64,000 nucleotides of DNA from Antedon mediterranea (Eukaryota > Animalia > Echinodermata): NCBI RefSeq assembly GCF_964355755.1, contig NC_092677.1, positions 18,250,101-18,314,100 on the forward strand, in the 5' to 3' direction. Positions 3,404 through 37,379 of this stretch are shown here, piece by piece (position 1 is the stretch's first letter; each line of letters begins with the position of its first letter). Under the pieces are notes generated by a model. It made no database searches. It was not told the DNA's origin and saw only the letters and a list, made by a program, of their open reading frames with translations. Both the position numbers and the translations under genes were made by a program.

Positions 3404-3475
3404 AGTAGTTGCAAAGATTTTAAACCACCAAATACATTTTCAGGCAATGATTTTAAGTCGTTGTTGTGTAAATAC
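3404..3475 (-). CDS. LRR exon 8 (last found in window) of CUB-LRR gene: YLHNNDLKSLPENVFGGLKSLQLL
   Basis: 72 nt, acceptor ..TTAAAG, donor GTAAGT, phase 2/2, LRR consensus. Confidence 0.85.
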
Positions 3476-3726
3476 CTTTAACGAAAAAGCATACAACAGT
3501 TAAAATAAATACAGGAGCTGTTGAGGGAGGTTTTCATTTTTCATTTCATTTTTCATTTCATTTTTATTTATTTACTTGGTCAATACACATTAAAATAATA
3601 CAGAACAGAAACAAAGCAAACAATTACTATAACTCAAAGAGTCAGTTGCCCCTAAAAACATCCAGATACAAAAAATATTGCACCAAAAAAAAAACCAATT
3701 ATACAAGCTTATTAAAAGTCTCTTTA

Positions 3727-4030
3727 TCTATATATAAATTATGGTTAATTCTGACATAGGCGAGCACAATGCAAAAACTTCGGTACAAATCTCCGCCTTG
3801 GATACCTACCTTATCTATCTTAGATGTACCGCGAAACGTAGATTTGATAACATTAATTTTCAAATCGACGCCATTGTTCAACTTTTGTCTTTTACAACGA
3901 CAAAATTTAGTGTTTACCTATCGAAAATTGTGTCACATGGTTATTTTCACACACTCGCGCTGTTGTTCAAGTGGCTTCCGGCTACGTCACTTCCGGCAAA
4001 ATGGCCGTTGGTGGCGCCTTTCAATATTAA
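3727..4030 (+). mobile_element. Helitron-like 5' end (3' end not found)
   Basis: Starts A|TCTATATATAAA like the Helitrons at 28820 and 57589. The duplicate copy reads TCTTTA|T at this site (~10046). End coordinate approximate. Confidence 0.5.
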
Positions 4031-4609
4031 ATAAAAAAATATTTTAGTGGTTCAAGGTATCGTGAACTACTGAAATTAATTTGTTTTAGATATTCAACTA
4101 ATCAATTATATTGATTAAAGGCATTTACTTTATTTTTTAGTAATTCAACTTTTATTGAAGGCTTTTACTTTTATGTGTACTACAATGTGATTTTAGTGAT
4201 TCAACTGAATCGTGAACTACAATTTATTTGTTTTAGATATTCAAATATTAATTATAAAGGCCTTTACTTTACGTGAAATACAATTTGTTTTAGTAATTTT
4301 ACTAATTATTATTATTGCATTAATACCAATTGTTGTAATACCAATTGTTGAAAGTTTTTACATCATTACAGGGAGAATTAATGTACATTTTGTTTACAAA
4401 TAAATAAATCTATTGAGTAACTTTTCCCCTTTACGTTCCTAACCACCGATTGCTGTCAAGTGTCCATACATCATTACTGACAGGGGACGTAATCAATCAT
4501 AATTGGCATACATTTCGCATCTTACCAAACTTATTTTCAGTACAGGTTCAAATCTCACACACACAAGACCGAATATAATAATTAGCCTATATTGTTCTCT
4601 ATTCGTACA

Positions 4610-5369
4610 TTTTTAGTCACGTGGAAGCGACTCTATAGTTCACTATGTCGGTCGGTCGGTCTGTCTGTCGGTCTGTCTGTCGGTCTGTCTGTCTGTCTGT
4701 CGGTCCGGTATCACTATGCGTTTTATCGCTTTATGACCTTATCTTGATATCAGTTTAATCTAGCTAAGTCAATTTTTCACAGAATATTCCTTGTGGCCAG
4801 GAATCGATGTGGTTATGTTTTCACGGTGCGCAATAAAAAATTACGCGGTCTACGCACGATTTAACGAAATCACGTTTGTAATCATATCTTAACAACCATT
4901 AATCACAATTAAATAAAATTTGGTACTCATAAATTTCAGGGCATAAATCATCATATGGCAATACAATTACGTGCGTAGCGCATGTAACGCATGCGTACGC
5001 GCGCTTAAAATTTTCAAAATTTATTTTCGATGAAATAAGAGTACGTTTTAGGCAATTTTAAGCGTTTACAAAATTGCCATGAGTGCGCAGATTTTTGCGC
5101 GCGCACTGCGCGTTAAATGTTATTGCGCACTCTTTTTGCCCGATTTCTGTTTTCTTTTCGTGACAGGCTACGCACGTGTAAATTAAAAAAATATAAATGT
5201 TTTTAAACATTTCAACATTTTTAAACATGTTCAGTAATTTCGGTCAGTATAGTTCACTATGTCGGTCGGTCCGTCTGTCTGTCGGTCTGTCTGTCTGTCG
5301 GTCTGTTTGTCTGTCGGTCCGGTATCACTAGGCATTGTAGCACGCGACTTAATGGCTGTTGGCCTTGTT
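4610..5369 (-). mobile_element. Helentron-associated non-autonomous element (HINE/DINE-1-like), family A, long copy
   Basis: Terminal stem-loop, (GTCT/GTCG)n microsatellites, ends ..GGCTGTTGGCCTTGTT. Inverted copy of 22657-23437. Confidence 0.75.
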
Positions 5370-6138
5370 TAAACTCTAATTTGCTATAATACCATGGAAG
5401 CGATATTTTTGGCGTACCTAATTTATGGACCACCATGAAACATCACAAAATAAATATACATTACTCATCAGTCATATGCATAGGTGTCACACGGTCTTCA
5501 ATTTCCAGAGGCGTTGGTCATGTTTTCGAGGACCAAACAATTAATAGATTAATAATCGGAAACAGCATCTCTTTTAGTGAGATAATGTCGGACTTTACAA
5601 AAAAGCATGTTAAAAGACCTCAACTGTTGAATTTCTTACATTATCAGGGAGAATAGCCCAAACACGTGGAAATAAATTCACAGGAGGCTGTGGTGCGGGC
5701 AAATTGGTGTCTAAACAAAAGTGAGTCGTAATGCTTTGCATTGACCAAGACACCTTCGACGATACATGGAGAGTTAGTTATACCATATGGACATTTAACA
5801 ATAAAATAAGCATGTAATCACGCCGAAAGTTCAGAAGTTAATAGTCCAAGCCGTCTTAAAAAAAATTAAAATCGATTTTTTCCTAAGTACCACAAACCAC
5901 AGAATTGATCGCGTTGCAACTGAAAATTTTCTTCGACGTTAATCGGTTATCTGGTATTCGCTTTTTGAAAATAACCTCATCCATACTCACAACGCAGTTC
6001 AAGTTATGGAAGGCCGATGAGAATGGGTTGGTTTACATCCTCTCGCTGCATAAAACTCTCACATGCAGGATTGAAAATTAAAAATTTAACTCTTATATGT
6101 AAAACTATATTATTTGTAAATTCTACCCAACCCCCAAA

Positions 6139-7930
6139 TTTGTGAAGGAGACAATCTATAATCATTTAGAAACTTGTAACTTGCTTAAAGAACAACAGCA
6201 TGGCTTCCGTTCAGGTAAGTCATGTGTTACTCAGTTAATTGAAGTTCTAGATTTGTGGACATCATGATTGGATAAAGCTTTTTCATTTGATTGCATTTAT
6301 TTCGATTTTCAGAAGGCGTTTGACAAAGTTCCGAATGGAAGATTGTTGTTAAAATTAAAGTCTTACGGAGTTTCTGGAAATTTTTTAGGATGTATCAAAG
6401 CTTTTTTGAGTGATCGTAAGCAGATAGGGTGGTTGTCAATGGGAAAAAGTCTGAATGGCGTGATGTAATTAGTTGGGTGCCCCAAGGCAGTGTCCTGGGA
6501 CCATTATTATTTGTTATATTTATAAATGATCTTCCAGATGTTATTTCTCATTCTGATGTCAAGCTTTTTGCTGACGATACAAAAATCCAATCTGATTTTG
6601 ATAGTGCCTTGCTTCAATGTGATGTGGATGCAAATGTATAGATGGTCTACAGACTGGCAGTTGCCATTTAATTTAACAAAATGCAAAGTAATCCATTTTG
6701 GATATAGAAATGGTATGTCTCAGTACTTTATTGGAGAGGGTCCTTTCAAAGTGAGTATTGAGAGTGTAACACAAGAAACCGATTTGGGGATTTTACTAGA
6801 TCATATATTGAATGTTTCGGCTCATACTACCAAAAGTTGCTAGATCTGCAAATATGATGCTGGGGATGATATGTAGGTCTTTTAAATATAGTTACATGTA
6901 TTTGTATAAATCTTTGGTTAGACCCAAGATGGAATTAGACCCAAGATGGAATACGGAGGTAGCTATGGATCCCACTCCATCAAAAAGATAAAGACAGACT
7001 AGAGAAAGTTCAAAAGCTTTGGACCTGCCTACTTTAGTATTTAGAAAGAAAAGGGCGGATATATTACAAACATTTAAAAATTGTTAATAAGTAGGAGAAA
7101 ATAAATGATGAGAAGCTCTTTTTAACAAGGCCAACCGCCCTTAAGTCGCGTGCTACAATGCATAGTGATACCGGACCGACAGACAGACCGACAGACAGAC
7201 CGACCGACATAGTGAACTATAGAGTCGCGTCCACGCGACTAAAAGAGCATAATTTTGACGAATTTTTTAACTTTTTCATCAAAAACGTGCGCAAATTATC
7301 CAATTCGACGTGCTCGTATGACCTAATTTTAAGTCGAAATTGTTTAAAAGTTGGTAAAATTATTATAAAAGGCTGCAAAAACATAAATTACGCGAAAAAA
7401 GTATGTATTTAACGCTACGTGCGCATCGCCCGCCTAAACATTTGCGCGCGTATGGGAATTTTGGACATGCTCAAAATGACAAGAAACGCGTAGAAAGTTG
7501 ATTAAAAATTAATTTTGCGCATTTTTAAATTTTAAATACGCGTGCGCGCGTAACTTTTCAACAGAAAGTTAGCGCCTGATATAAATTAAACTTTTGCAAA
7601 GTTTCAATTTAAAATGTTTAATGTTTAACGAGAAAATCGTTAAATCGCGCGTAAATCACGTTGCGCAACTCTAACGTCATTCACAATAGGAGGTGCACAA
7701 TTTCACGTAAATGCCCACATGTTGACATCAAAACAGTTAAAAAAGTACAGAAAAGCGATAAAACGCATAGTGATACCGGACCGACAGACAGACCGACAGA
7801 CCGACAGACCGACCGACATAGTGAACTATAGAGTCGCGTCCACGCGACTAAAAATATAATATAAACAAACTAGAGGACACAGTATCAAAGTCTCTAAACC
7901 CAAGATAAAATTAAACGTTAGAAAGAGTGC
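6139..7930 (+). mobile_element. Decayed CR1-clade LINE RT/3' fragment, split by a HINE at 7124-7853
   Basis: YFDFQKAFDKV, VPQGSVLGPLLF, KLFADDTK. Frameshifts present. Confidence 0.9.
7124..7853 (+). mobile_element. HINE family A
   Basis: ACAAGGCCAAC...(GACA/GACC)n...AGTCGCGTCCACGCGACTAAAAA. Absent from the duplicate at ~12045. Confidence 0.8.
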
Positions 7931-9739
7931 ATATATATATATAGCTTTCTGGATTTTATTGGACATAATGGTTGGTTGAGGTTTTTTGAAAGTGTGCATA
8001 ACTTACTTTAAAGAGAGCTGCATATTCAAAAGCTCTTAGTGGATGCAGCTACGTATTATATAATGATGACACTGATAAGGATGTATCATTTTGTCTCCAG
8101 ATATAGACATATTATAGAACAATTGATCATGGCCAATATGCCTGAACGACAAATTTCTACAAACCTATAATGCAAGAAATTCCAGCAGAATGGATATACA
8201 CAACGTGTTATAATGGTGAACAATCTGTTTTCAGACATGACCACAATAGAGAAAACCCTATGTATCTTGAAATTTGTCCACGGATAACCAACTCATGGTG
8301 AAAAGTTAGGCTATCGCGCAACGCTACGTAACATGCACACGTTATTTATTAGGCTTATTCTACAGTAGGCGGCACAAAACGATTGTACAAACAGCTTAGC
8401 ATCGATCAAAACCGTTTAACAATAGTCAACAGTTCAGCATTAGACAGTATTGTATTGTATTTTAAACCACTCAAGTTTATTTAAATGTTTGAATATGATG
8501 AGCTTTTCAGATTAAAACAAAGTTGGAAGAAACTTGACGCGATATGCTCTCTATTGAATGTGACGAACTATGTCGATAGAGATAAAAATTAAATTCAGAT
8601 GGCCATATGATGACGTCATAACACACTTAAGATTTACATTTTACATGAATTTATATCTACAACTCATTACCTTTTATAATAAATTTTGAAAAATTGGGGT
8701 CACCTGCCATCGCGGACAGCTATAATCGATCGAAAATAGGCATATTTTTATAAAAATTTGCATATAATTACCCATTTTCAAGCACACGATTTTTAAAGTT
8801 TGACGTGCATTTGTGTCATTTATTTTACATTCATAATTCATAAAAAAAATGAAAGGACCTTATCACGAAAGGTATACAGAACAACAATCAAGTACAAAAA
8901 CGGTCTGTCTAAGTTGCGTGAGAGCTAAGTACGTAAAAGCGCGTGCGCGACGTGACATTTTGTGAAAAATGTGAAATGCTTAAAATGCGCTGAAGCGTGT
9001 AGAAAGTTGAGCATTTTTACCTTTCAAAGCGCGCGTACCAATGTTCAAAATAAGCTGATGATACAGAAAGATGATTAACATGAAGCATCCAAAGTTTCAT
9101 TATAAAAGGACTGTTAATTTTGAATTTATACTCAATTTAAGAACTTCAAAAAATAGCTAAGCAACAATATTTTCATTAAACCAAAGTTTGTTGCACATCT
9201 ACGTATACACGTGCATCTGCTGACCAAGTTACAACATAACTGCTATCGCCGTTTTCAAGATCTGCGACGAACACAAAATGAGCAGAAAAAATGAAATAGG
9301 CTCTCGCTCTACAGAGAGCGATTGTCTTAAACCAAAACTCGTTAAAATAACAAGGGGCCCGTTATCCGCCAAGTGCGGATTATATAGTTAATTTTTGTTT
9401 TTATATGCATTTAAAAAAAGGAAATGTTTATTGTTACTAAGTTTTAGAATTTTATTTTGGATAGCCATAATATAATTAATACTAATTTCTTAGTCAAAGT
9501 TACAACACATTCCCAGAGCACACAATCTATAACAATAACAAGTGACGATTCTAAATGTTGCCTTACATAATAAACTGTACGCACAGGTATCTTCCAAAAC
9601 CAACGAAACATTTCACTTTATACTTCCTTTAGTAAGTTCCACTGAACCTTAAAATTAGGTAAACCTACACATATCACATATCATATACCTATATAATTTC
9701 ATAATTTCCAATTATAAAATTATAAGAAAAAACACTTAC

Positions 9740-9811
9740 AGTAGTTGCAAAGATTTTAAACCACCAAATACATTTGCAGGCAATGATTTTAAGTCGTTGT
9801 TGTGTAAATAC
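9740..9811 (-). CDS. LRR exon 7: YLHNNDLKSLPANVFGGLKSLQLL
   Basis: 72 nt, AG / GTAAGT, phase 2/2. Differs by 1 nt from 3404-3475. Confidence 0.85.
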
Positions 9812-10699
9812 CTTTAACGAAAAAGCATACAGCAGTTAAAATAAATACAGGAGCTGTTGAGGGAGGATTTCATTTTTCATTTCATTTTTATTTATTTACT
9901 TGGTCAATACACATAAAAATAATACAGAACAGAAACAAAGCAAACACTTACTATAACTCAAAGAGTCAGTTGCCCCTAAAAACATCCAGATACAAAAAAT
10001 ATTGCACCAAATAAAACAATTGTACAAGCTTATTAAAAGTCTCTTTATTCTAAAAATTAGTATAGGGGATCGGTACATAAATATACAAAATTAATAGATT
10101 AATAATTGGAAACAGCATCTCTTTTAGTGAGATAATGTCGGACTTTACAAAAAAGCATGTTAAAAGACCTCAACTGTTGAATTTCTTACATTATCAGGGA
10201 GAACAGCCCAAACACGTGGAAATAAATTCACAGGAGGCTGTGGTGCGGGCAAATTGGTGTCTAAACAAAAGTGAGTCGTAATGCTTTGCATTGACCAAGA
10301 CACCTTCAACGATACATGGAGAGTTAGTTATACCATATGGACATTTAACAATAAAATAACCATGTAATCACGCCGAAAGTTCAGAAGTTAATAGTCCAAG
10401 CCGTCTTTAAAAAAAATTAAAATCGATTTTTTCCTAAGTACCACAAACCACAGAATTGATCGGGTTGCAACTGAAAATTTTCTTCGACGTTAATCGGTTT
10501 TCTGGTATTCGCTTTTTGAAAATCACCTCATCCATACTCACAACGCAGTTCAAGTTATGGAAGGCCGATGAGAATGGGTTTGTTTACATTTTCTCGCTGC
10601 ATAAAACTCTCACATGCATGATTGAAAATTAAAAATTGAACTCTTATGTAAAACTATTTTATTTGTAAATTCCCAATAATAAAAAAAAAATACCCAACC

Positions 10700-12124
10700 C
10701 CAACATTTTGATTCAGACGAACGCAAGACAGATAATAGAGTCGATTCAGTTTTCTTTGAGATGGAAGAAGTTGTGAAGCATTTGAACGGCTTAGATGTAA
10801 GTAAATCTCCTGGCCCTGATATGATAAATTCAAGAGTACTTAAGGAAACTGCTTATTGGGGGAGTAATTACTTTATTATTTAACAAATTAATGACTGTAG
10901 GAGAAGTCCCTGACTTATAGAAGAGAGCTGAAGTAGTATCTCTGTTTAAAAAGGGTAATAAAAGTGAACCTTTAAATTATAGACCTGTAAGCCTAACTTC
11001 CATACTATGCAAAACCATGGAGAAATTTGTGAAGGATAAAATCTATAATCATTTAGAAACTTTTAACTTGCTTAAAGAACAACATGGCTTCGTTTTGGTA
11101 AGTCATGTGTTACTCAGTTAATTGAAGTTATAGATTTGTGGACATCAGGGTTGGATAAAGTTCTTTCATTTGATTGCATTTATTTCGATTTTCAGAAGGC
11201 GTTTGATAAAGTTCAGCATAGAAGATTGTTGTTAAAATTAAAGTCTTACGGAGTTTCTGGAAATGTATTAGGATGGATCAAAGCTTTTTTGAGTGATCGT
11301 AAGCAGAGGGTGGTTGTCAATGGGAAAAAGTCTGAATGGCCTGATGTAATTAGTTGGGTGCCCCAAGGCAGTGTCCTGGGACCATTATTATTTGTTATAT
11401 TTATAAATGATCTTCCAGATGTTATTTCTCATTCTGATGTCAAGCTTTTTGCTGACGATACAAAAATCCAATCTGATTTTGACAGTGCCTTGCTTCAATG
11501 TGATGTGGATGCAAATGTATAGATGGTCTACAGACTGGCAGTTGCTATTTAATTTAAAAAAATGCAAAGTAATCCATTTTGGATATAGAAATGGTATGTC
11601 TCAGTACTTTATTGGAGAGGGTCCTTTCAAAGTGCGTATTGAGAGTGTAACACAAGCAACCGATTTGGGGATTTTAATAGATCATATATTGAATGTTTCG
11701 GCTCATACTACCAAAAGTTGCTAGATCTGCAAATATGATGCTGGGGATGATATGTAGGTCTTTTAGCTCTAGTTACATGTATTTGTATAAATCTTTGGTT
11801 AGACACAAGATGGAATACGGAGGTAGCTTATGGATCCCACTCTATCAAAAAGATAAAGACAGACTAGAGAAAGTACAACAGCGATCAACAAGGCTGGTGT
11901 GCGAATTAAGATACAAATCATACGAAGAGAGGTTGAAGGCTTTGGACCTGTCTACTTTAGTATTTAGAAAGAAAAGGGCTGATATATTACAAACATTTAC
12001 AATTGTTTAATAAGTATGAGAAAATAAATGATGAGAAGCTCTTTTAAAAAATATAATTATAAACAAACTAGAGGACACAGTTTCAAAGTCTCTAAACCCA
12101 AGATAAAATTAAACGTTATAAAGA

Positions 12125-12130
<6 letters not shown>
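10700..12130 (+). mobile_element. Decayed CR1-clade LINE RT/3' fragment
   Basis: KSPGPD, NYRPVSLTS, KAFDKV, PQGSVLGP, FADD, LEKVQQRSTRLV. Shares a frameshift with the copy at 6139. Confidence 0.9.
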
Positions 12131-12174
<44 letters not shown>

Positions 12175-12188
12175 TAAATATATATATA

Positions 12189-12225
<37 letters not shown>
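12130..12225. repeat. (TA)n microsatellite
   Basis: Directly visible. Confidence 0.95.
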
Positions 12226-12228
<3 letters not shown>

Positions 12229-13112
12229 CAATGATGTTGCGTAGCACTGTGTAAATTATATATAAATCATACTGTAAATTATAGAAACAGTGCTCATATT
12301 CGGAACATGATCTCATAATCGCGTCGAGCATAGCTCATTGGCGAAAGTTCCGTATTTTTTAGTTGTATGAAAAAATGTCTCTGGCGGGATTTGAACCTGC
12401 AACCTCTCGCTTACAGGGCGAGTATCATACCACTAGACCACAGAGCCATGTATGGTATTATCACAGATTTTCACCCACCAGATACATTCTCTCATACAAC
12501 AAACGCCCTCACAATCAGTGGAGGCTTAACAAGCCCAACTTTAATTCGCAACGGTTTTTTAAATAATATTGTGTATATGTAAATCAATGATGTTGCGTAG
12601 CACTGTGTAAATTATATATAAATCATACTGTAAATTATAGAAACAGTGCTCATATTCGGAACATGATCTCATAATCGCGTCGAGCATAGCTCATTGGCGA
12701 AAGTTCCGTATTTTTTAGTTGTATGAAAAAATGTCTCTGGCGGGATTCGAACCTGCAACCTCTCGCTTACAGGGCGAGTATCATACCACTAGACCACAGA
12801 GCCATGTATGGTATTATCACAGATTTTCACCCACCAGATACATTCTCTCATACAACAAACGCCCTCACAATCAGTGGAGGCTTAACAAGTCAGAATAAAT
12901 TCCAACTTTAATTCGCAACGGTTTTTTAAATAATATTGTGTATATGTAAATCAATGATGTTGCGTAGCACTGTGTAAATAAATCATACTGTAAATTATAG
13001 AAACAGTGCTCATATTCGGAACATGATCTCATAATCGCGTCGAGCATAGCTCATTGGCGAAAGTTCCGTATTTTTTAGTTGTATGAAAAAATGTCTTTGG
13101 CGGGATTCGAAC
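12225..13112. repeat. ~356-bp tandem repeat, ~2.5 units, each with a tRNA-like segment
   Basis: AAATCAATGATGTTGCGTAGCACTG recurs at ~12225, ~12581 and ~12948. Confidence 0.9.
12376..12447 (-). pseudogene. tRNA-like sequence (anticodon TGT, Thr-like); second copy 12732-12803
   Basis: GGCTCTGTGGTCTAGTGGTATGATACTCGCCCTGTAAGCGAGAGGTTGCAGGTTC(A/G)AATCCCGCCAGAGACA followed by TTTTTT. A and B boxes present. C33 and stem mismatches suggest a pseudo-tRNA or SINE head. Confidence 0.65.
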
Positions 13113-14721
13113 CAAATCAACAAAGTGTTGAGCAAACTAAAAGTCAAAAGAAAAAACAACAAAAAAAGAAAAGGGAAAAGCTAAAAAAGAAGAGGAAACT
13201 AAACATAAGGAAGCAGTGAAAAAAACATCAGAAAAACCTAGTAGGCCTACAGCTACAGGAAGAATGCGGCCAATAACAGACTTCATGGTCTCAGGAAGTA
13301 GAGCTGAAATAACCAATGCTGAAGAAGAAGTCGCAACAATAGCAAGGCAGAACTTCGCATCCTCTAAACAGAAGAAAGCGGAGAAAAGAATGCTGAAAAA
13401 AGAGAAAAACAATCAGATTCAGTAAGTTGAATCTATAATGCCTATAATTACGTAATTGTTAACAATTACAACAGTTACTGTAAACAGTGTATAAAACAAT
13501 TTCACAAAACAAATTTAGCCTAAACAAAATAGAAACAAAATTAATAAATTTAAATGAAAGCAAAACAAAAAAACATCTCTCTACATTTAGTATCTTTGAA
13601 TGTAAGAGGCCTTCGAAATTATGATAAAAGAAGAAAAGTCTTTAAATGGCTTGAAGAACAAAGTGCTGGCATTGTGTTTCTGCAAGAAACCCATTTCGAC
13701 AATAATATTATAAGGCAAGACACACTGTGGAAAGGCAAAACCTACCACAGCTTTGGAACAACAAATAGTAAAGGAGTTTCTATCTAGTTTAGATGTTAAA
13801 GATATTAAACTCAAATTTACAGACGAAGAAGGTAGAATACTAATTTTAAGTTTCATTTTTAATGAAAAAGTAATAAATCTTATAAATGTGTACGCTCCTA
13901 ATAACTATAAAGAAAGAGAAATGTTCTTTAAGAAACTAGATAGAAAAATTGTCTCTCTTCGCAATGATAATGATGAACTCATTATAATGGGAGGAGATAT
14001 GAATTGTATTTTAGAACATAAAATAGATCAAAGAAATAGTACACCTATTAAAAATATGACAATTCATCGAATATCTTAAAAAAATTAATGAAAAATCACA
14101 ACTTAACTGATATATGGAGACAGTGCCACAGTGATAAAACACAATTTACCTGGAGGCGAAAGGATACTTTTCGTAGATTAGACTACTGGTGCGTATCTAG
14201 AGATCTCCAAAAAAATGGGGATATTCTTTCAACAGATAATATTAGGCCCTCCTTATTTTCTGACCATCAAGCAATCTCACTTAAACTCGTAAATACCAAC
14301 CAAGTGAAAGGTCCAGGAATTTTGAAAATAAATAATAGCATCTTAAATGATGATACATACGTAGAAAATATAATGCACATAATAGAAATTATTACAAATA
14401 ATGAAAACAATTTAAGTCCAGACCTTCAATGGGAATTCTTGAAAGTTAAAATAAAAAAAATCAGTCGTAGATACTGTACAAAGAAAAAAAAGGAAAGAAA
14501 CACCCAAAAAAATTATTTACTTAATGAAGTTGATGAACTAACTGATCAATTAAATGTTCCTACTCTGAAAATACAGACACAATATTATGAGATAAAATAA
14601 AACAGTTAGATGACATCTACCTTCTAGAAGCACATGGTGCGAAAATAAGGTCTAGAATCGAGTGGTTCGAAAAAGGTGAAAAGAATAACAAATTCTTTTT
14701 AGGATTAGAAAAAGCTAAAGC
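13113..14721 (+). mobile_element. L1/Tx1-clade LINE: ORF1 tail and ORF2 AP endonuclease (frameshifted)
   Basis: SLNVRGL, FLQETH, NVYAPN, GGDMN, DIWR..FTW, RLDYW, SDH, KIRSRIEWFEKGEKNNKFFLGLEK. Confidence 0.9.
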
Positions 14722-16697
14722 TTGCTTCAATGAATATTTTACTACTATTGCAGCAAATTTGGTCAGTAAATTTCCATCCCCTAAGAATGTGTATGAATGT
14801 ACGTCGTCCAAACTTAAGGATTTCTATAGAACCGTTAGTGGCAATAACTTTTTGCTCAACTCAGTGAACGAAGACTTTGTATATAGTGAATTAAACAAAC
14901 TTAATGCGACAAAAAGCACGGGTGTCGATAAGATACCTCCCCGCTTCATAAAAGATGGGGCTGAAATTCTAAAAGTTCCCATTACCTACATAATTAATTT
15001 ATCAATTAGTACCAGTACAGTCCCAGAAGACATGAAAAAGGCCAAGGTCATACCTCTTTATAAAAAAGGTAGTAGAACCGATATTAGAAACTATCGCCCT
15101 ATAAGTATACTCAGTACAATGTCTAAAATTTTAGAGAAGGCTATTTTTATTCAAATCGAAAAATACCTTACTGAAAACAACGTATTGTATAAATATCAAT
15201 CTGGATTTCGAGCTGTCTTCTCTACTGACACATGTTTGATAGACTTAGTTGATTCCCTTAAAACCCAAACTTCTAAGGGAAATTTCTCGGGTATGATGTT
15301 GGTCGATTTAAAGAAGGCTTTTGACACTATGATCATGATATTTTATGTAATAAGCTTAAATTAATGGGTATTGGATCTATTGAATGGTTCAAATCTTACT
15401 TGTCAATAAGAAAGCAAATAGTAACTGTTGATGATCATTGCTCTCAATCGTGTACTGTTACATGCGGGGTTCCTCAAGGAAGTATCCTTGGACCCCTTTT
15501 GTTCTTATGTTTTGTTAATGACATGGTAACTTGTATTGATCCTGATTGTAAACTCCTTCTATACGCTGATGACAGTGCAATTGTTTATTCACACAGAAAT
15601 CCAGATATTATTTCTAAGAAGCTAGGGTCAACACTAGACTCATTGTGTGATTGGCTTGTAGACAATAAATTAACAATTAACCTGGATAAAACTGAATGTA
15701 TACTATTTGGTTCTAAGAGAAAAACTAAAAATGTTAACAATTTTAATGTCTCAACAAACGGTAACAATATCAACACTAGTAATTGTGTCAAGTATCTGGG
15801 TATTGAAATAGATCAAAATTTAACGTGTTCTGAATATGCATGTAAAACCATTAAGAAAATAAATAATAGGCTTAAGTTTATGTACCGCCAACGTAAGATA
15901 CTAAGTTGTAAGAATCGTAAACTATTATGCTCTGCTCTCATCCAATGTGTTTTTGACTATGCTGCATCTTCTTGGTTCTGTGGAACCAGTAAAGCTATCC
16001 AAAAAAAACTACAAATTGCTCAAAACAAAATGGTTAGACTCATAAAAGGAGTTGAACCCAGAAGACATATAGGCGTTGATCCATTAGACGATTATGGATT
16101 GTTAAATGTAAAATATCGAGTAAAGTTCTTGCAAATTAGCCAAGTTCATAAGATATTTATGGGCAGAAGTGCTTCATACCTAAATGAAAACTTTCGTAGA
16201 GTTAATAACTTACATGGTCACTTCACTCGTGGTAGTAAACTCAATTTCATTGTACCTAAAGTCCAAGGCATAGAATGCAATACATTCTATTTTAATGCAA
16301 TCAGAGAATGGAATAACCTTCCTGACTATATTAAACAAATTTCTAACACATCTAAATTTAAAACTGAATTGAAACAATATTTCAAAATTAAACATAGATG
16401 AATTATTATTGTGCCATTATATCAGATGTTTTGCTTATATATTTATGAACCCCGTCTCATAATGTTTGTTTTGTAAAAATTATAATTATTATCTTTTTAG
16501 GGACCACATTGGAATTAAGTTGTTTTACTTTAAACGACTTTATGTGTTTTCCCGTGGATCTTCAGACTTCATTAATCCCGCCATTTTTATTTGCTTTTTT
16601 GATGTATTTTAATATTTAAGGTGATAATATATATTATTGATGTATTTTTAATGTTATGTATTGAGATGCCAAATAAATGAAAGAAAGAAAGAAAGAA
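14722..16697 (+). mobile_element. 5'-truncated CR1/L2-group LINE (Crack/Daphne-like) nested in the Tx1 element
   Basis: ORFs 14759-15364 and 15364-16401 joined by a 1-nt frameshift near 15330. NYRPISIL, PQGSILGP, YADD. AATAAA plus (GAAA)n tail. AAAGC duplicated at 14717-14721 and 16698-16702. Confidence 0.9.
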
Positions 16698-17394: not shown

Positions 17395-17640
17395 AACAAG
17401 GCCAACAGCCATTAAGTCGCGTGCTACAATGCATAGTGATACCGGACCGACAGACAGACCGACAGACCGACAGACAGACAGACAGAGAGACCGACCGACC
17501 GACATAGTGAACTATACTGACCGAAATTACTGAACATGTTTAAAAATGTTGAAATGTTTAAAAACATTTATTTTTTTTTAATTTACACGTGCGTAGCCTG
17601 TCACTTTCGACGTGCTCGTATAACGTAATTTCGAGTTGAA
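17395..17640 (+). mobile_element. HINE family A, partial
   Basis: Matches the first ~250 bp of 22657-23437. Confidence 0.75.
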
Positions 17641-17649
17641 AACAAACAA

Positions 17650-20087: not shown

Positions 20088-20099
20088 GTTTATACTATA

Positions 20100-20188: not shown

Positions 20189-20760
20189 TAATTTTAGAAT
20201 ATGTTCTTATCGAATTATCTGGTGATACTATAACTTCTGATAACAGACAATTTGCCTTCATGTCTAACCATTGTACAGAAACTTGTATTTATTAAATACT
20301 ACTATAGTAACGGTAACACCGTCTACAGTATGTATACTACCTCAATGCTTCAAAAGCTGTTGATAGGATGAACCATTGGACACGTTTTAATAAATTAATT
20401 ATTAATGGTATTCCATGACCAATTGTTAGAGTACTAATATCAAAATCTTAAAATATGTTGACTTGAATGCTTTAAGGCCTCGATGTTGTAGTGCCAGCCT
20501 CATGTTTACGGAATGTAGAATTCATTCTTTTTATGAATTGTTAAGAAAATCGACATATGGCCTGATAGACTGAATTCAAGTGAATTAGTTTCAACGATTA
20601 TATGCAACGTCTTATTTAAGTCAAAGATGCTCTCCAGGTAGAATGCCATCCTGAGATGAGTAGTAGTAATTAGTCTTGGTTATTTTTATTTCATTTCTAT
20701 ATAATTTTTACTTTCTATGGACCAGAGAATCCGAAATAAAACAGATTGAATTGAATTAAA
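20189..20760 (+). mobile_element. Highly decayed LINE RT fragment with AATAAA and (TTGAA)n tail
   Basis: QFAFMSNHCTETCIY and NASKAVDRMNHW resemble RT motifs. Tail at 20735-20760. Confidence 0.5.
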
Positions 20761-20832
20761 TAAATTCACAATTAACATGATTTACTAACATTTAAATTTG
20801 TAAAAGTAAGAAAAAACATTAGAAAACACTTT

Positions 20833-20889
20833 GTCAAACCAACAAATGCATTTTCAGGCAATTTAATAATGACGTTACTCCCTAAATCC
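20833..20889 (-). pseudogene. Dead LRR exon (DLGSNVIIKLPENAFVGLT..)
   Basis: Paralogous to 22420-22491, but the acceptor AG has become CG and the exon 3' end and donor are deleted. Confidence 0.8.
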
Positions 20890-22267: not shown

Positions 22268-22339
22268 AGTTTTACCAATGATTTTAAACCACTAAATGCA
22301 TTTGTAGGCAGTACTGCTATTTCGTTTTCTTGTAAATAC
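22268..22339 (-). CDS. LRR exon 6: YLQENEIAVLPTNAFSGLKSLVKL
   Basis: 72 nt, AG / GTAAGT, phase 2/2. Confidence 0.85.
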
Positions 22340-22419
22340 CTTTAACAAAATACAAGAAGAGTACATAAACAAAGCTTTTAAATTTGTACAATTAAGAAAC
22401 AACATTAGAAAACACTTAC

Positions 22420-22491
22420 AGTTTAACCAATGAAGTCAAACCAACAAATGCATTTTCAGGCAATGTAGTAATGCCGTTACTTCTTAAATCC
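22420..22491 (-). CDS. LRR exon 5: DLRSNGITTLPENAFVGLTSLVKL
   Basis: 72 nt, AG / GTAAGT, phase 2/2. 80-nt intron to exon 6. Confidence 0.85.
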
Positions 22492-22656
22492 CTTCAAAAT
22501 AAAAACATGAACACTTGGTAAATAACAGTTCACGATTTGAGGGATTCTTCGTTGGAGAAAATAGTTATCGTTTGGTGTGTATGTCAGTGGATAAATAGTG
22601 ACCGTAACATAATTTGTAACTGTATGTGTATTATTATTTTGTATTACTTATCAATA

Positions 22657-23437
22657 AACAAGGCCAACAGCCATTAAGTCGCGTGCTACAATGCATAGTG
22701 ATACCGGACCGACAGACAGACCGACAGACAGACAGACAGAGAGACCGACCGACCGACAGAGAGACCGACCGACCGACATAGTGAACTATACTGACCGAAA
22801 TTACTGAACATGTTTAAAAATGTTGAAATGTTTAAAAACATTTATTTTTTTTTAATTTACACGTGCGTAGCCTGTCACTTTCGACGTGCTCGTATAACGT
22901 AATTTCGAGTTGAAAAGTAAGTCAAGAAAACAGAAATCGGGCAAAAAGAGTGCGCAATAACATTTAACGCGCAGTGCGCGCGCAAAAATATGTGCACTCA
23001 TGGCAATTTTGTAAACGCTTAAAATTGCCTGAAATGTACTCTAATTTAATCGAAAAGAAATTTTGAAAATGTTAAGCGCGCGTACGCATGCGTTACATGC
23101 GCTACGCACGTAATTGTATTTATGAAATTTATGAGTACCAAATTTTATTTAATTGTGATTCATGGTTGTGAAGATATGATTACAAACGTGATTTCGTTAA
23201 ATCGTGCGTAGACCGCGTAATTTTTTATTGCGCACCGTGAAAACATAACCACATTGATTCCTGGCCATAAGGAATATACTGTGAAAAATTGACCTAGCTA
23301 GATTAAACTGATATCAAGATAAGGTCAGAAAGCGATAAAACGCATAGTGATACCGGACCGACAGACAGACAGACCGACAGACAGACCGACAGGCAGACCG
23401 ACCGACCAACATAGTGAACTATAACTAACTACTAAAA
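22657..23437 (+). mobile_element. HINE family A, long copy
   Basis: Reverse complement of 4610-5369. Absent from the paralogous intron at ~37530. Confidence 0.8.
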
Positions 23438-24422
23438 ATGAGAGTCGAATAAGCGTTAAAAAAATTATTCAAATTAAAATGCAAAGTTTATCAACTGAAG
23501 TAATAGGTCGTTACTGTATATAATCGCTAACATAGAAAACGTTTCTAAAACGGAGAGATACACTATATCAAATTTTAATAAAATCTTGAAGAAAATTGAC
23601 CAATAATCAATCCCTTAGGCCTACTTTAAACAGAAACTTTGCAGGAGCGCGAGTAAAGCTTATCATTGTAACTAACGATAAACGTTTCTCAAAAACTGTT
23701 CAAGGGGAGTCGGCTATATAGTTTTTAATTTTTATGAGTTAAGCTTTATACAGTAATTGATTTGTTATAGGTAGCCTTTAGAAAAGAGAAAAATAGTACA
23801 CATCTGGAATCAAATCAACACCAACACAGCTGATGTAATTTGAGGGTATACAATAATAATAATAATTATTATTATTATTATTTATTGAAGTATAAAACAA
23901 ATAAAGAGAGCATTTTAAACACAAATCAGTAAACCGAAAAATGCTCGATAAAAAGTTAATAATATGGAACCTGTCATACATAGATTGTCCCAAATAAAAA
24001 AAAAATGGGAGAAAAACAGATTGAATTGCAACGAACTGAAAAGATGGCCTTAAAAAGGATTTTGAAAAGTTTGATAGAAGGTGCACTATTATTATTATTA
24101 TGAAGTGAATTAGGAAGACAGTTTAGGAACTTCAAAAGCTCGATTAGGCGACTAGGTGGAACAAAAAAGTATAGATGTACTACCGGTAGTAGTCGACCTA
24201 AGAAATCGTTTATAAACTGAAGATCTACATTATAATGAAGGTGGAAATATATAGCGGTGAAGTGAGGTTTATGTAATTAACATTTGTTAATTGGATATAA
24301 TTCGCTGTTTAATTAGAAGCCAGTGTTGTGTACAGTGTGTAATATTGGTGTAAAGTAAGTAAATCTTCAAATGCCGGATGTAAGGCGAGTTGCAGTAGTT
24401 AAACAAAGTTGTAATTTATTAA

Positions 24423-27400
24423 AGTTGTATTGTCCCCAAAACATGAAAAATAAAGATGAAAAAAATCCAATTTTGAATAGACCATTTTGCAGTTATAATA
24501 AAGTTATTCACTTTCGCCGAAAAAAAATCCGAAAAAAATTTTGATTTCGCTTATAAAAAATCAAAATAAATTTACCATTTTTTCGAACTCATAAGCTCAG
24601 AAATTCCAAAATATTTGATGGTTAGCTAACAACTCATAAATATGCATGATATTTTAATGAGCATCCAAACAGGGGAGATCCGATCTGTTATCTTCACCAC
24701 ATATGGGCGACGAACAGAAGAAAGTGCTGGGGTTTCCCTGATCGTATGATACTGGGCCGATCCAGGGGGGGGGGGAGGGTGTCCACGGGGTCCGGACCCC
24801 CACCCCTAAATTTTAAGGGTGCCCTTTTTTTAGAGGTTCAATATTTTATTCGTGACATATTTGTGTTTATATTAGTATGCACAGAGTAGGCTACACTAAC
24901 CCCAAAAATAACAAGGCCAACAGCCATAAGTCGCGTGCTAAAACGCATAGTGATACCGGACCGACAGACAGACCGACAGACTGACCGACCGACCGACATA
25001 GTGAACTAAAGAGTCGCGAGAGGTGGTGACGCGTGATGATCTCTACTTAAACTTCTAAAAATAGATCGTTTCACATACTACAGAGGGCGCATGTAAACTT
25101 TTTTTGCGCTTTTCAAGATGCCTCGTATATTAGAGAGAGGGAGAAAGCGCAAACAGCAAGATTTGGCAGAACAAGCCAAACTGGTTACATACTAGTAATA
25201 ATGATGATCAGCTAGATACCTCTGGACCACCTATTTTTTTACCCGCCGCCGCTGAAGTCTGTAATAATGATCAGCAAGGCCTAGATACCTCAAGCTCTGG
25301 ACCACCTACTTTTTTACCCGCCGCCGCTGACGAGGTCTGTCTCCTCCCATTTTTTGTTTATCAAATTAGAAACGGAAAAGCTGCTCATTTAAATCAAATA
25401 AATTCAGTAATCAACATGAACACAATGTCGAATGATAAAAGATTACATGCATCATCAATTGATAATAATAATGGATTATTATCATTGATGACCGTATCGG
25501 AAGAACGCAACAAAAAAGATGTATCTATTGTTAGTCGCCACGTGCTTAGGCTTAGGCTATGCTCACTTTGCTGTTTGCTAGCTAGCTCGCTAATAAAGTG
25601 TCATTTCCGGCGAACTAGAAAGGTGCCATTTATCATGGATTTTGCGTGCGAGAGTACCATTTCCGGCCATCTAAGTGTGTCCTGTAACAAAATTCGCTTC
25701 GCCACAACCCTGTGGCTCAAATACTCAATATCTGATGTGCCCTTTTTATCGGCGGACCCCCCTCTCAAAAATGTCTGGATCCGCCCCAGTGATGTAAAAA
25801 GCTCTGCCGTTAATTTGCTGGTGAGTAGAATTTTATTTTCGATGAATGACACATCCTCCTATAAAAGTTATATCGCAAACTAGACGTTTTTGGCGTATAG
25901 TTACAGGCTTAGCTATCTAGGCAAGGGCTAAAGCATCACTAGGGCCTAGTAAGTAGTTCACTACTGTGTAGTGTAGCAGCTGTAGGCAGGTAGATAATCT
26001 AGTCAGAAAAGTAGACGGGAACCCACTGAGGCCTAGCTAGGTCCTATATACCGTACTCACCTAACTAGGCCATCACTCCACAACTAGCTACAGCAAATAG
26101 GCCTACTATGTTGCTGTACCATTAATATACATTTGGAGCTAGAATTAATTTTAAAGTCTAAAAAAGACTAACAATTATGACAAAAAACAAACATTTGGAA
26201 AATGATCAGGATACAGTACCCAAATAAGTTGACGGTAGAATAGATTGTTGTTGATAGCAACCAAAACGAAAACACTAGTAATTAGACTAGGCCTTTTTTA
26301 GGGAGGAGATGTACTTTTCAGGAATTCTTATACTGTACATTAGTACCCCAAATTGAAAACTTCAGATTCATATACAGAAATAATAACTATATGTATGCAA
26401 TAAATTGTGAAATATTTAACTTTTCTATTTGACTTTTGTATTTATACATCATTGTTTTTAAATTTATAGATTTAAGCTAATGAAGACTGGAACAGAGGTT
26501 ACACCCATACTGCATAAAGGCAACTGGCGGTAGACTCGGTAGTGGAACACAAGATAAATATTGGATGACTATCATAGAGCATTCGGCAAATGTGTTTGTT
26601 GTTTTCCAGCTTTTAAAATGTTGTATAGTTTTCATAATAAAAGCAATAAAATTTGTATAAATTATTTTGCAAACATAGCAACAGCATTAAATAAATAAAA
26701 AATACTACTACAGTACATGAGATAAAATCTCCATAATTTTAATGTGTGAAGATTTACAATACAGTACAGTAAAAAATGAGTTAATTATTAGTATATTTCA
26801 TTGAATGTCTGCATTATTGTTGACAATTTATTTTCAACTATTAATTGATGTGTTGATTGTGTCATTACAGCAATAGCTTGTATTCTGTGATTGTTCATCC
26901 ATTTTAAAGTGTCATAGTAAGAAACGTTCAAATAAATATTGTGAATGTTGCTACCACATTTTGTATTTATTTCTTCACCATTTTCCACTACTTGTTCACA
27001 TTTTCCATTCAATTAGTGTGTTAATACCTATTAAAACAAAGACATTTTTATTAAAATATCTACATAAAAAAGTTTAATTGTGTGAAAGTTGGTTTGAACG
27101 TTATTGCTTTGGAAGAATTTTCAACATAACGGTACTAAAGTACTGTAAAGTACACATCCCAAAAAATATTTAACTTAGATGATTTTGGTCATTTTCTCTA
27201 AAATAATTACATTATTGGATGTACAGTAGGCCTATAGGCCTAGTTACAATTTTCACAAATTTATATTAGCATTAAAATCTAATTAATCATGAAGGAAAAA
27301 CCAAGCACCATAATCTCTCCTGGCCCTGGTTTTATTTTTGGCAGCCATTCACAAGTTTTTACTTTTTGGGTTTCGCTGCTCTTATGTATAATTTTTTTTA

Positions 27401-30291: not shown

Positions 30292-30500
30292 TTATTATAA
30301 TTTTACAATATTGTAAAATTATTATAATTTTACAATATTGTAAGACACCAGCACGTTACGCTGAACGTTATGGAATTTAGAAACAGGTAAACTTATCCTT
30401 AATTGTATAATATCATAATCACAATTATTAACAATTAAAATTGTAAACATTACAACATTTACATTTTTTAAAGTAAGAAAATAAATAGTAAAACACTTAC

Positions 30501-30572
30501 AATGTTACCAATGATTTTAAACCGCCAAATGGATTTGTAGGCAATACTGCTATGTCGTTTTCTTGTAAATAC
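30501..30572 (-). CDS. LRR exon 4: YLQENDIAVLPTNPFGGLKSLVTL
   Basis: 72 nt, AG / GTAAGT, phase 2/2. Confidence 0.85.
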
Positions 30573-31522
30573 CTTTAACGAAATATAAGTAAGAGTAAGT
30601 TAACAAAATCACCTCCTTTATATTGGAGAAAATAGTTAAAGTTGCCTGTGTCAGTGGTTGAAATAGTGACCGTAAATAAATGTATTGTATTACGTGTATT
30701 ACTAGATGGTCGATAACAATAGGAACGTTAAATTATTATTTAAAAAAAGAATTTAAAGTTTATTGACAGATTGTAGATTATTCGGTTTTTAACTAGATTT
30801 GGTAGATTTGTTTATGCCTACGAGTTCATTTTCCTTTGGTCAAGGGGGATTGGTCGGCTGAATTTATATGATTTAGCTTTGTAATTTATTTGTTATATAG
30901 GTAAAGTCTCTGAACATTGTCTCAATGGTGTAATGATTTATTTGCAGTTTAGCACGTGACAGTATTCTTCCTCCTCTGGGCCTACGGCATAATGTGAGCG
31001 AAAACATCAGTATACATTTGCCAAAAAGTGACATAAAAGTATAAAGAATACTCGATAACAATACTTTATAATAATCTCATATTGCACCTCTACGTACTTA
31101 CACATTGTTTGGTAATGTAGTGTAAAAAAGTGACATAAAAGTATAAAGAATACACGATAAAAATACTTTATATTAATCTCATATAGCACCTCTACATACT
31201 CGCAAATTGTTTCTATATATAAATTTACGTAAGGGCAAAATTCGGTAAATCGCGCGTTATTTCTAGAATGTTTACTCGATGGTATATAAAGTTGGTTAGA
31301 ATCTCGGTACTGATTTTAACCACCTGATGTAACCATGTTTACTAATTAAATTGACTTAGATAATTAGTTATTGACAATTAAAACGAATTTAGGTTCAACG
31401 ATTTTCCCCAAATAGGGGTGCTTTTCGATCGTAGTATACACTGGATGTCCTTTTGAAAAATACCTGCACACAATAACACGAGGATGCTTCGCATTTTTAC
31501 TATCTCCTCCTACGATAATTGT

Positions 31523-31641
31523 TTTTAGTCGCGTGGACGCGACTCTATAGTTCACTATGTCGGTCGGTCGGTCTGTCGGTCTGTCTGTCGGTCCGGTATC
31601 ACTATGCGTTTTAGCACGCGACTTATGGCTGTTGGCATTGT
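31523..31641 (-). mobile_element. HINE family A, minimal complete copy
   Basis: Inserted in a T-run without TSD. Empty site TGTTTTTAATAGC at ~57905. Confidence 0.85.
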
Positions 31642-31756
31642 TAATAGCTGAAAACTGGTTGAACAGATCGAGTACAGTATCATAATGTTGAAGACAGGCC
31701 GATTTTCTTTAAAAAATACTATTTTTATAGATTTAATATAAGTTTATACAAATGTA

Positions 31757-33759: not shown

Positions 33760-33831
33760 AGTTTAACCAACGATGTCAAACCACCAAATGCATTTTCAGG
33801 CAATGTATTAATGCCGTTACGTCTTAAATTC
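33760..33831 (-). CDS. LRR exon 3: NLRRNGINTLPENAFGGLTSLVKL
   Basis: 72 nt, AG / GTAAGT, phase 2/2. Confidence 0.85.
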
Positions 33832-34828: not shown

Positions 34829-34900
34829 AATGTATCCAATGATGCCAAACCAACAAATGCATTTTCAGGCACTGTAGTAATGTCGTTACTGTTTAAATCC
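34829..34900 (-). CDS. LRR exon 2: DLNSNDITTVPENAFVGLASLDTL
   Basis: 72 nt, AG / GTAAGT, phase 2/2. Visible at the end of ORF 34825..35043. Confidence 0.88.
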
Positions 34901-35670: not shown

Positions 35671-35752
35671 TATTACCTCCGCCAAGGAGGTTATGTTTTC
35701 ACCCCTGTATGTGGGTGGGTGTGGGTGGGTGTAGGGGTGGGTGTGTGTGTGT

Positions 35753-35787
<35 letters not shown>

Positions 35788-36270
35788 TGTGAACAGCCTG
35801 GAGGCCACAGTTTTCATCCGAATCCGGCCAAATTTGGCCACAATGATCTATGCCCAAAAAGCTCGGATGAGTTCGAATTTGAGGGGAAAAGTTCATAGGT
35901 CAAGGTCACAACTAACAAAAAACAATTTTACTGCCTAGAGATCACAGTTTTTAACCAATTCTCAACTTAGCCACAATGATCAATGACACATCATATAATT
36001 GTGGCTAAATTTTGAAGGGTCCGGGTCAAAGATCAAGGTCCACAAAAAAAAAAATTTAAAAAACCCTTGAACTAGCGATCTCAACTGTGAGAGGCTGGAT
36101 ACATAACCATTACACCACACTGTCATCCACAACTTTGTAGTATGCAGTAAGCCTATTTACACTTAGAACTAATAAAAAAAAATGTTAAAAAAAAAATATT
36201 CAGGGGCATTTTTTATGTAGGGGAATTTTACAGTAGGCGGATGTTTGTACTCTCCGAGTATCCTCTAGTT
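35671..36270 (+). mobile_element. Helentron-type element family B with (GT)n
   Basis: TATTACCTCCGCCAAGGAGGTTATGTTTTC start, GT microsatellite, end TACTCTCCGAGTATCCTCTAGTT. Confidence 0.7.
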
Positions 36271-36570
36271 TGTATATATGTTTATATTATATCTAACAGT
36301 ACAAACACTCACAGTAAGAAATTTGCGATTCCAATGGCGGCCAAAAGTGGTTATGTATTTACAGTATTATATATTGCAATACCATATCTTAAGGTTTTAA
36401 GTTTATTCTCCAAGGGTCCATAAATGTATTTACTTGTGTTAAACCAAATAATTTGTAATGTTCCATTTAGTGGAGTCTGTTAGGAATATTTTGGTTCATT
36501 TTTTCCAAAAGCACCAAATTTGGTATACAGGTTGACAACCCTATACAAATTCAATTTTTGATGGGCGGCA

Positions 36571-36635
36571 AGCATAATTTAAAATTTGCATAATTTAAAA
36601 TTTGCATAATTTAAAATTTGCATAATTTAAAATTT
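36571..36635. repeat. 16-bp minisatellite x4 (GCATAATTTAAAATTT)
   Basis: Directly visible. Confidence 0.9.
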
Positions 36636-37307
36636 ATTTGATTATAAATGTTATTATATTACAAATTAAATGCCCCAATAAACGCAGTACTTGTTGATGT
36701 TATATTCATCATCTAAGACGCATTTCAATAATTGTAACCGAAAACGTCCTATCCAGAACGTCCTTTTACAATCTGTGTAGTTTTTACATAAGTCATGTCA
36801 CCCTCTAGTAATTTTAGAAATACAGACAATCAATGGTGTAATGATTTATTTGCAGTCTAGCACGTGACAGTATTCTTCCTCCTCTGGGCCTACGGCAGAA
36901 TGTGACCGAAAACATCAGTATACATTTACCAAAAAGTGACATAAAAGTATAAGAATATTCGATAACAATACTTTATAATAATCTCATTTATTGCCGCTAC
37001 ATACTCAATTGACAACACATTTTATGTTTTATCCGCTTTGACAATAAAGAATAAATCAAACAAAGAAGTTGTTATTGTTCAGTCATTATCACCAGTAGCG
37101 CTTAACTTTGATAACATACCCTTTAACGTATTGTTATAGTGTGCCGACATTATACAAGATATTAGAAGCATAATACAACGCATGGTGGTATTTAGAAACA
37201 GCTGAACCTACCCTTAATAATGTATAATTTCACAATTAACATGTTTTACTTAAAATTGCAAAGTTTTTAAATGTGTACAAGTAAGAAAAAACATTATAAA
37301 CACTTAC

Positions 37308-37379
37308 AGTGTAACCAATGATGTCAAACCAACAAATGTATTTTCAGGCAATGTAGTCATGCCGTTACTGCTTAAATCC
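37308..37379 (-). CDS. LRR exon 1: DLSSNGMTTLPENTFVGLTSLVTL
   Basis: 72 nt, AG / GTAAGT, phase 2/2. Confidence 0.85.

Follow-up and report, generated by a model that had tools for sequence, protein, structure and literature searches.

Turnover of single-repeat LRR exons in the arm of a putative CUB-headed receptor gene of the feather star Antedon mediterranea

Data from a 64-kb window of the Antedon mediterranea genome (the whole stretch of DNA that was analysed) suggest that eight short exons of one feather-star gene make up its LRR arm. We consider it reasonably probable that this arm is the ectodomain of an LGR-type GPCR, that its repeats turn over in the germline and that its exons are spliced mostly in genomic order. 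The locus contributes a CUB head, birth and death of repeats within one array, and a spliced contig showing joint exon use.

All eight LRR exons named in the original prediction were recovered on the minus strand as described there, each being 72 nt long, preceded by AG, ended by a GTAAGTG donor, of phase 2/2 and stop-free. They fall into three classes, namely A (A1, 37308..37379; A2, 34829..34900; A3, 33760..33831; A4, 22420..22491), B (B1, 30501..30572; B2, 22268..22339) and C (C1, 9740..9811; C2, 3404..3475). Their order in the gene is A A A B A B, a dead A, C C, which replaces the two alternating classes first proposed with three classes and no simple alternation. When the window was searched with a DNA profile (nhmmer), the eight exons were found at E<=3e-27, the ninth, dead copy at E=1e-14, and the next match only at E=0.15; weak matches at E>=0.15 were rejected as extra exons. 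The dead copy had been overlooked in the original prediction. Run X2, possibly derived from the very sample used for the assembly, has contigs that match A1, B1, B2, part of A4, the dead copy and most of the upstream LRRNT-like exon with 0 differences, and the 5′ part of the dead copy with its upstream flank also occurs on a contig of run X5.

The dead cassette and a tandem duplication diverged by 3% show recent gain and loss of cassettes. The dead A-type cassette (20832..20889, minus strand) has its acceptor AG changed to CG, and a deletion took the 3′ end of the exon together with the donor. The tandem duplication (1035..12140, unstranded; copies 7943-12140 and 1035-7942) carries C1 and C2 in a unit of ~4.2 kb; the alignment of the copies covers 3895 nt and has 122 mismatches. 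The C2 copy alone contains blocks of ~573, 1797 and 721 nt, the two exons are identical except for 1 of their 72 nt, and the junction of the duplication sits at an AT microsatellite. Homology extends across hundreds of bases (69-86%) among the introns that precede A1, A4 and the dead copy, and the flanks of B1 and B2 are homologous as well (74-78%). An intron motif said to be shared near 33660, 34710 and 37180 is indeed present in exact copies at 33663, 34711 and 37181; with up to 4 mismatches allowed, it has no further occurrence. The flank homology, the dead copy and the C1/C2 duplication all support the earlier proposal that the array expanded by duplication of exon+intron units. Between A4 and B2 the intron is 80 nt long (22340..22419, minus strand) and joins an A-type 3′ flank to a B-type acceptor region; we infer that it arose by deletion following duplication.

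In our proposed mechanism, unequal crossing-over or repair between homologous introns would add or remove whole repeats with the reading frame kept, and each gain or loss would alter the length and the residue row of the concave binding sheet, whose surface residues may then be changed by free drift or mild diversifying selection. The receptor would recognise a microbial or chemical ligand from outside and signal via a 7TM tail beyond the window, and tens of related cassettes would serve sister genes. Concerning the latter, at 8 positions of the A cassette the summed depth of X2 contigs reaches 30-100 times the depth of this run's long unique contigs, a ratio that is not a copy number, and cassette variants absent from the window occur in run contigs. 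Together, contig depth and these variants suggest that sister cassettes exist elsewhere and number in the tens.

If the family reading is true, a crinoid reshapes the binding arms of its receptors by gain and loss of whole repeats, like brown algae, and would provide a testable case for varied LRR recognition in animals without adaptive immunity; if nothing but ordinary, in-order splicing takes place, the locus encodes a young LRR receptor whose exon plan is nothing unusual. A much broader version, which we regard as unlikely, is a germline-variable receptor repertoire, in which tens of interchangeable 72-nt cassettes would be copied within and between head-swapping GPCR genes, with allelic differences of exon number, extra isoforms made by skipping, a VLR-like binding range and G-protein signalling, but no somatic rearrangement.

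Upstream of the repeats, the minus-strand gene has the order predicted signal peptide, CUB, LRRNT and at least eight LRRs, with a reading frame open for 370 codons and canonical splice sites. The predicted first coding exon (43983..44040, minus strand, 58 nt) carries an ATG, a signal-peptide-like hydrophobic stretch with a mean Kyte-Doolittle value of 3.1 across residues 2-13, and a phase-1 donor. A CUB/LRRNT exon had been expected in this region; the CUB part was identified by PF00431 (E=1.5e-17) in a minus-strand exon of 345 nt and phase 1/1 (40547..40891), and the LRRNT-like part by the Cys motif CPxxCxC..C in a separate minus-strand exon of 133 nt and phase 1/2 (39183..39315). The latter has no Pfam match at E 0.1, and its best atlas match is LRRNT with a score of 0.88, taken as a lead only. 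The CUB exon has 75% identity to Antedon mediterranea protein P0099, and its closest relatives are crinoid proteins.

The gene runs off the start of the window with its 3′ end outside, and the exon scan of positions 1-3403 gave no additional exon of it. Since the 64 kb contain neither a hinge or LRRCT exon nor a transmembrane or 7TM exon, the GPCR tail is a part of the gene that we infer. The gene product is probably an LRR-GPCR-like receptor carrying a CUB head. Among 163 proteins from CUB searches, none carries this LRR at E<1e-3, and a CUB-only search restricted to longer proteins gave 0 of 507 candidates, CUB relatives being present in other searches. A protein search with an LRR profile that contained 49 intron-derived columns yielded 30 LRR proteins of a generic kind, of which none is named as crinoid and none has a Pfam family for CUB or 7TM. 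No description of a CUB+LRR+GPCR protein or of a crinoid LRR expansion was found in literature titles or abstract openings.

A PDB ranking that placed LGR5/LGR4 first was discarded, since its profile contained the same number of intron-derived columns (49). With a clean 23-column profile there were 0 matches at 1e-10 and 38 at 0.01, and designed LRRs, VLRA and the Nogo receptor ranked above LGR4/5; hence the repeat type is not specific to LGRs. The same cassette turnover could belong to a non-GPCR LRR protein with a CUB head, either single-pass, GPI-anchored or secreted, which we hold to be rather unlikely. Such a protein would suit a window that lacks 7TM, repeats that resemble those of VLR, Nogo receptor, SLIT and LGR about equally, and a CUB module whose other crinoid relatives lie in MAM/LDLa, hyalin-like and protease proteins; exon size and phase, however, match LGR genes. 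Gonadotropin receptors are reported to have phase-2 exons with one LRR each (PMC11378527), and in ambulacrarian LGRs, too, single-exon LRRs are described (PMC8286064). An extracellular LRR array with one repeat per phase-2 exon is present here too, but this plan is common to unrelated families, so it is not diagnostic.

Within the LGR-type reading that we prefer, a close likeness in layout is to type C LGRs (RXFP1/2 and GRL101, with the snail GRL101-like expansions; PMC8286064, PMC12297450, PMC6573481, PMC4079206), which are reported to have an N-terminal accessory module followed by single-exon LRRs and to form lineage-specific tandem families. Snail GRL101-like families expand in tandem, and those of Biomphalaria sudanica are described as having an extra C-type lectin domain in the head and a gene presence that varies by haplotype. 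In contrast to type C receptors, which have one or more LDLa modules at the N-terminus, the feather-star gene has a CUB module; the minus-strand exon scan gave no LDLa-like exon, and solely the CUB exon stands between the signal exon and the LRRNT. It also differs by near-identical, recent repeats and by a 7TM not seen in the window. Single crinoid orthologs are reported for GRL101, the dilp7 receptor and the gonadulin receptor (PMC8286064), and therefore our gene would be a side branch and not one of those orthologs.

Brown-algal LRR-ROCO genes are described as having a 24-aa LRR per 72-nt phase-2 exon, duplicated cassettes and non-coding intronic LRR copies, and as a multigene family with a proposed recognition role (PMC3341825, PMC11378527). 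Similarly, the 72-nt phase-2 LRR exons of our locus were duplicated with their introns, and a dead copy lies in an intron. According to the same sources, ROCOs end in a ROC-COR GTPase, form splice variants and have a concave face for which positive selection is significant, whereas the feather-star gene has a predicted signal peptide, CUB and LRRNT, a concave-face value of p=0.10 and one in-order contig. The agnathan variable lymphocyte receptors VLRA/B share 24-aa typical LRR modules with it, and among natural proteins of the PDB it is VLRA that matches the clean profile best (E=9e-8). VLRs are reported to be put together from flanking cassettes when the DNA is rearranged somatically (PMC3341825), whereas the feather-star modules are exons with intact splice sites, joined at the RNA level; against a VLR-type system stands a germline chain that forms a continuous, spliceable ORF from the outset and is spliced. 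Toll-like receptors, whose LRR domain is reported to lie mostly in a single long exon and to be accompanied by TM and TIR (PMC6642158), were rejected on the eight separate LRR exons.

One spliced contig shows that the cassettes are real exons and are used together. It was found in run X5, from a second individual, at a depth of 4.8 (X5 is taken as RNA by guess only), and reads A->A3->B1, with A3 and B1 being genomic neighbours in genomic order. Compared with the stretch to which it was aligned, this contig (record 13) lacks a GT-AG intron of exactly 80 nt, and it was assigned to A3/B1 by mismatch counts of 5 and 5, the junction letter and agreement at 4 of 4 listed positions; its joint was found in 0 of 3 other runs (X2, X6, X8). 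Homologous exons are spliced together in it, therefore exon choice is not mutually exclusive, and a Dscam-type array was rejected on this one contig, which holds A, A3 and B1.

Diversification of the binding surface by exon skipping, as suggested originally, finds no support so far: when four (X2, X5, X6 and X8) of eight listed runs, none of which is recorded as RNA, were compared, no skipping was seen in the single spliced contig found, and the sole junction with identified partners, A3-B1, joins exons adjacent in the genome. A combinatorial scheme, in which one gene would make many LRR arms from any subset of symmetric exons, perhaps in a cell-specific manner, seems quite improbable to us. 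It would be permitted by the exons themselves, as no possible junction among the LRRNT and the eight LRR exons makes a stop codon and any subset stays in frame, as predicted, and the exon before A3 in record 13 may be A1 instead of A2. LRR splice variants are known for ROCOs (PMC11378527), skipping is reported as occasional in ambulacrarian LGR reads (PMC8286064), and human NLRP3 likewise has frame-preserving LRR exons for which stochastic skipping is reported (PMC6642158). NLRP3 is, however, intracellular with 171-nt two-repeat exons, and its skipping is shown, whereas the feather-star contig is in order; moreover, LRR exons of many animal gene families are described as frame-symmetric by default (PMC6642158), and the joining of homologous exons in one contig also argues against the scheme.

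By codon comparison, the LRR framework is conserved, with 3 amino-acid changes in 20.8 sites vs 36 in 34.1 elsewhere (p=4e-5) and omega~0.21 (p=0.008 vs synonymous). For the predicted concave binding face (6 codons, parsimony count over 8 exons), omega was ~1.9, and the excess of change at this locus is not significant (p=0.10; concave vs convex, p=0.24). A decaying or relaxed duplicate, in which cassettes multiply passively in TE-rich introns, the surface drifts neutrally and C1/C2 may be two haplotypes duplicated in the assembly, would account for one dead cassette, for 13 non-synonymous vs 3 synonymous changes in class A (close to the neutral ratio), for class A exons no more alike than their flanks (82-93% in both) and for a C1/C2 divergence of 3.1%, not too high for two alleles of a polymorphic marine invertebrate, but we judge it very improbable given the conserved framework codons, the absence of exon indels, the splice sites, which are intact in all but one of the 9 cassettes, the spliced contig from a second individual, and a C1/C2 junction that runs from microsatellite end to unit start, as expected of a real tandem duplication. 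As for the indels, the four A exons have 0, vs ~6 predicted from their flanks (P=0.002, or 0.005 counting the dead copy).

The array of LRR exons is real, transcribed and recently remodelled. All eight single-LRR exons of the original prediction were recovered on the minus strand (A1, 37308; A2, 34829; A3, 33760; B1, 30501; A4, 22420; B2, 22268; C1, 9740; C2, 3404), each 72 nt long, preceded by AG, followed by GTAAGTG, of phase 2/2 and free of stop codons. A DNA profile search of the window matched these eight exons at E ≤ 3e-27 and a ninth, A-type copy at 20889-20832 at E = 1e-14, with no other match below E = 0.15; in this dead copy the acceptor AG is changed to CG, and the 3′ end and donor are gone. 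Instead of the two alternating classes proposed, pairwise distances gave three, class A (37308, 34829, 33760 and 22420; 5-13 nt apart), class B (30501 and 22268; 7 nt apart) and class C (9740 and 3404; 1 nt apart), with 18-24 nt between classes, and the order along the strand is A1, A2, A3, B1, A4, B2, dead A, C1, C2.

The claim that the array grew by duplication of cassettes (exon plus intron units) is borne out by homologous introns and flanks, a fused intron and a tandem duplication. The intron motif quoted in the original prediction has exact matches at 33663, 34711 and 37181. Three segments of the intron before A1 (37259-37521, 37565-37845 and 38391-38497) are homologous to segments before A4 (22370-22647, 23460-23742 and 23739-23860) at 79-86%, and the introns before A1 and before the dead copy are homologous at 69-71%. 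Flank similarity is 74-78% between B1 and B2 and 68-74% between A and B. In the 80-nt A4-B2 intron, a B-type acceptor is fused to an A-type 3′ flank, which we read as the probable trace of a deletion that followed duplication. The tandem duplication that contains C1 and C2 has 122 mismatches over 3895 nt, three blocks confined to the C2 copy and a junction at an AT microsatellite; this duplication may instead be a haplotype artefact. On these comparisons, the array has both gained and lost cassettes recently.

Eight sequencing runs were listed, none of them annotated as RNA; for splicing, contigs of four (X2, X5, X6 and X8) were aligned to window 20750-22645. X5 carries the same organism code and comes from a different sample and study; its RNA status is a tool's guess, and it also contains unspliced pieces. 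One X5 contig (record 13; 164 nt, depth 4.77) shows that the LRR exons are transcribed. It comprises a B piece (5 differences), an exact skip of the 80-nt GT-AG intron, an A piece (also 5 differences), a single T and the end of another A-type exon. Among the eight window exons, only B1 has these 5 differences in the first piece, and A3 alone fits the 5 differences of the A piece, the T and the states at 22423, 22434, 22459 and 22482. Thus, in a second individual, splicing joins three exons: an A exon (either A1 or A2), then A3 and B1, the last two in genomic order. The joint was seen in none of the other three runs (0/3). A one-of-many choice among the A exon, A3 and B1 is ruled out by their joining in this contig; as a single contig, it gives no measure of exon skipping.

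Upstream on the same strand we found a predicted first exon (44040-43983, 58 nt) that carries an ATG and codes for a hydrophobic stretch, a CUB exon (40891-40547, 345 nt; PF00431, E = 1.5e-17) and an LRRNT-like exon (39315-39183, 133 nt), the last without a Pfam match and with an atlas score of 0.88 that is a lead only. Joined in order, the 11 exons gave 370 open codons, and, as predicted, any subset of exons stays in frame, skipping junctions creating no stop. A window scan found no additional exons between cassettes or down to base 1, so the C-terminal part of the gene lies beyond the window. Head-to-head with it, on the opposite strand, lies an SRCR-domain gene (55230-60374, plus strand) with four PF00530 exons (E 1e-11 to 3e-29) and a last ORF, hydrophobic and rich in proline, that resembles a transmembrane segment and tail; it is a candidate scavenger-receptor-type immune gene.

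By identity, P0099 (about 75-76%) and P0033 (55%), both Antedon mediterranea proteins, stand out among the best 150 of 3249 CUB matches, and a follow-up search placed Anneissia and Antedon proteins at the top, which makes a feather star the likely source. The window's LRR is absent from all 163 proteins of these searches. The P0099 sequence stops at the end of the window's CUB exon; this protein could be a truncated model of a similar gene. The CUB exon belongs to a crinoid group present also in other protein types, namely MAM/LDLa proteins (P0033, up to 56%), the hyalin-like P0183 (57%) and the CUB/protease protein P0181 (up to 50%), a spread that suggests a mobile phase-1/1 exon.

The repeat sequence alone singles out no LRR family. 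The window gene lacks the LDLa feature of type C LGRs (RXFP/GRL101) and falls outside the definitions of VLR, Dscam-type and TLR. We predict that the receptor carrying the array is likely LGR-type, a membership depending on a 7TM part that lies unseen. In brown-algal ROCOs, PMC3341825 and PMC11378527 describe 72-bp phase-2 LRR exons that are shuffled, have dead copies within introns, give rise to splice variants and show selection on the concave face; the latter paper gives gonadotropin receptors the same LRR exon phase. Enrichment of frame-preserving LRR exons in human LRR families (PMC6642158) and tandem GRL101-like families of snails linked to schistosome resistance or chemosensing (PMC12297450 and PMC6573481) have also been described. 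Judged by titles and abstract openings, none of the papers listed in our literature searches describes an LRR receptor with a CUB head or arrays of LRR cassettes in crinoids.

Sister cassettes point beyond the window. Long unique X2 contigs have a depth of 130-170, and summed depth at 8 positions in or before the A exon was 30-100 times 155, as against five A copies in the window; the tool cautions against reading these sums as copy numbers. Independently of depth, the proline codon at 22459, invariant in 8/8 window exons, is altered in 11 X2 contigs. X5 record 14 fits no window cassette (best 7/12 states), and in X6 and X8, from a second organism, A-type cassettes occur at about 20-45 times the long-contig depth. 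We infer that tens of related cassettes probably reside in other genes, in a related species too. In that organism (X8 record 24, X6 record 16), the intron segment found after B2 in the window has an A-type exon ~690 nt ahead of it; cassette order may differ there.

Selection was examined by codon class on a tree of the eight exons, with framework, concave and other positions assigned as we take them to be in typical LRRs. Amino-acid changes numbered 3 on 20.8 sites in nine framework codons, 19 on 14.3 sites in six concave-face codons and 17 on 19.8 sites in nine other codons; synonymous changes came to 12 over 17.2 sites. The framework codons differed from the rest (p = 4e-5), with omega ~0.21 (p = 0.008). 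Compared in pairs, A-cassette flanks have ~3 gaps per 72 nt, and no gap falls within the four A exons (P = 0.002; with the dead copy counted, 0.005; AT-rich flanks inflate the expectation). Purifying selection acts on the exons as LRRs. Diversifying selection may also act: concave omega is ~1.9 without reaching significance (p = 0.10), and the comparison of concave with convex codons gives p = 0.24 (eight exons). Against it, class A exons, at 82-93% identity, diverge like their flanks, and their 13 non-synonymous and 3 synonymous changes (our own count from the table and junction codon) are near neutral.

The introns hold many repeats. A fragmented LINE with RVT_1 matches occupies the B2-C1 intron (13141-16401, plus strand), and more RT fragments lie at about 6136-7128 and 11023-12051, within the duplicated unit. 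A 358-bp tandem repeat of 2.5 copies (12218-13113) contains two tRNA-Thr(TGT)-like sequences (ARAGORN, relaxed threshold), and nested, SINE-like repeats with three tRNA-Val/Asp-like heads lie between the signal and CUB exons (41424-43295). By eye, window 1-260 (plus strand) resembles part of a Ty3/gypsy RNase H, which makes an LTR element likely in the intron that follows C2. A family of small repeats with a GACC/GACA tandem core, present in very high copy number, has many intron insertions on both strands (4606-5371, 17395-17642, 22653-23423, 24904-25018 and 31522-31645).
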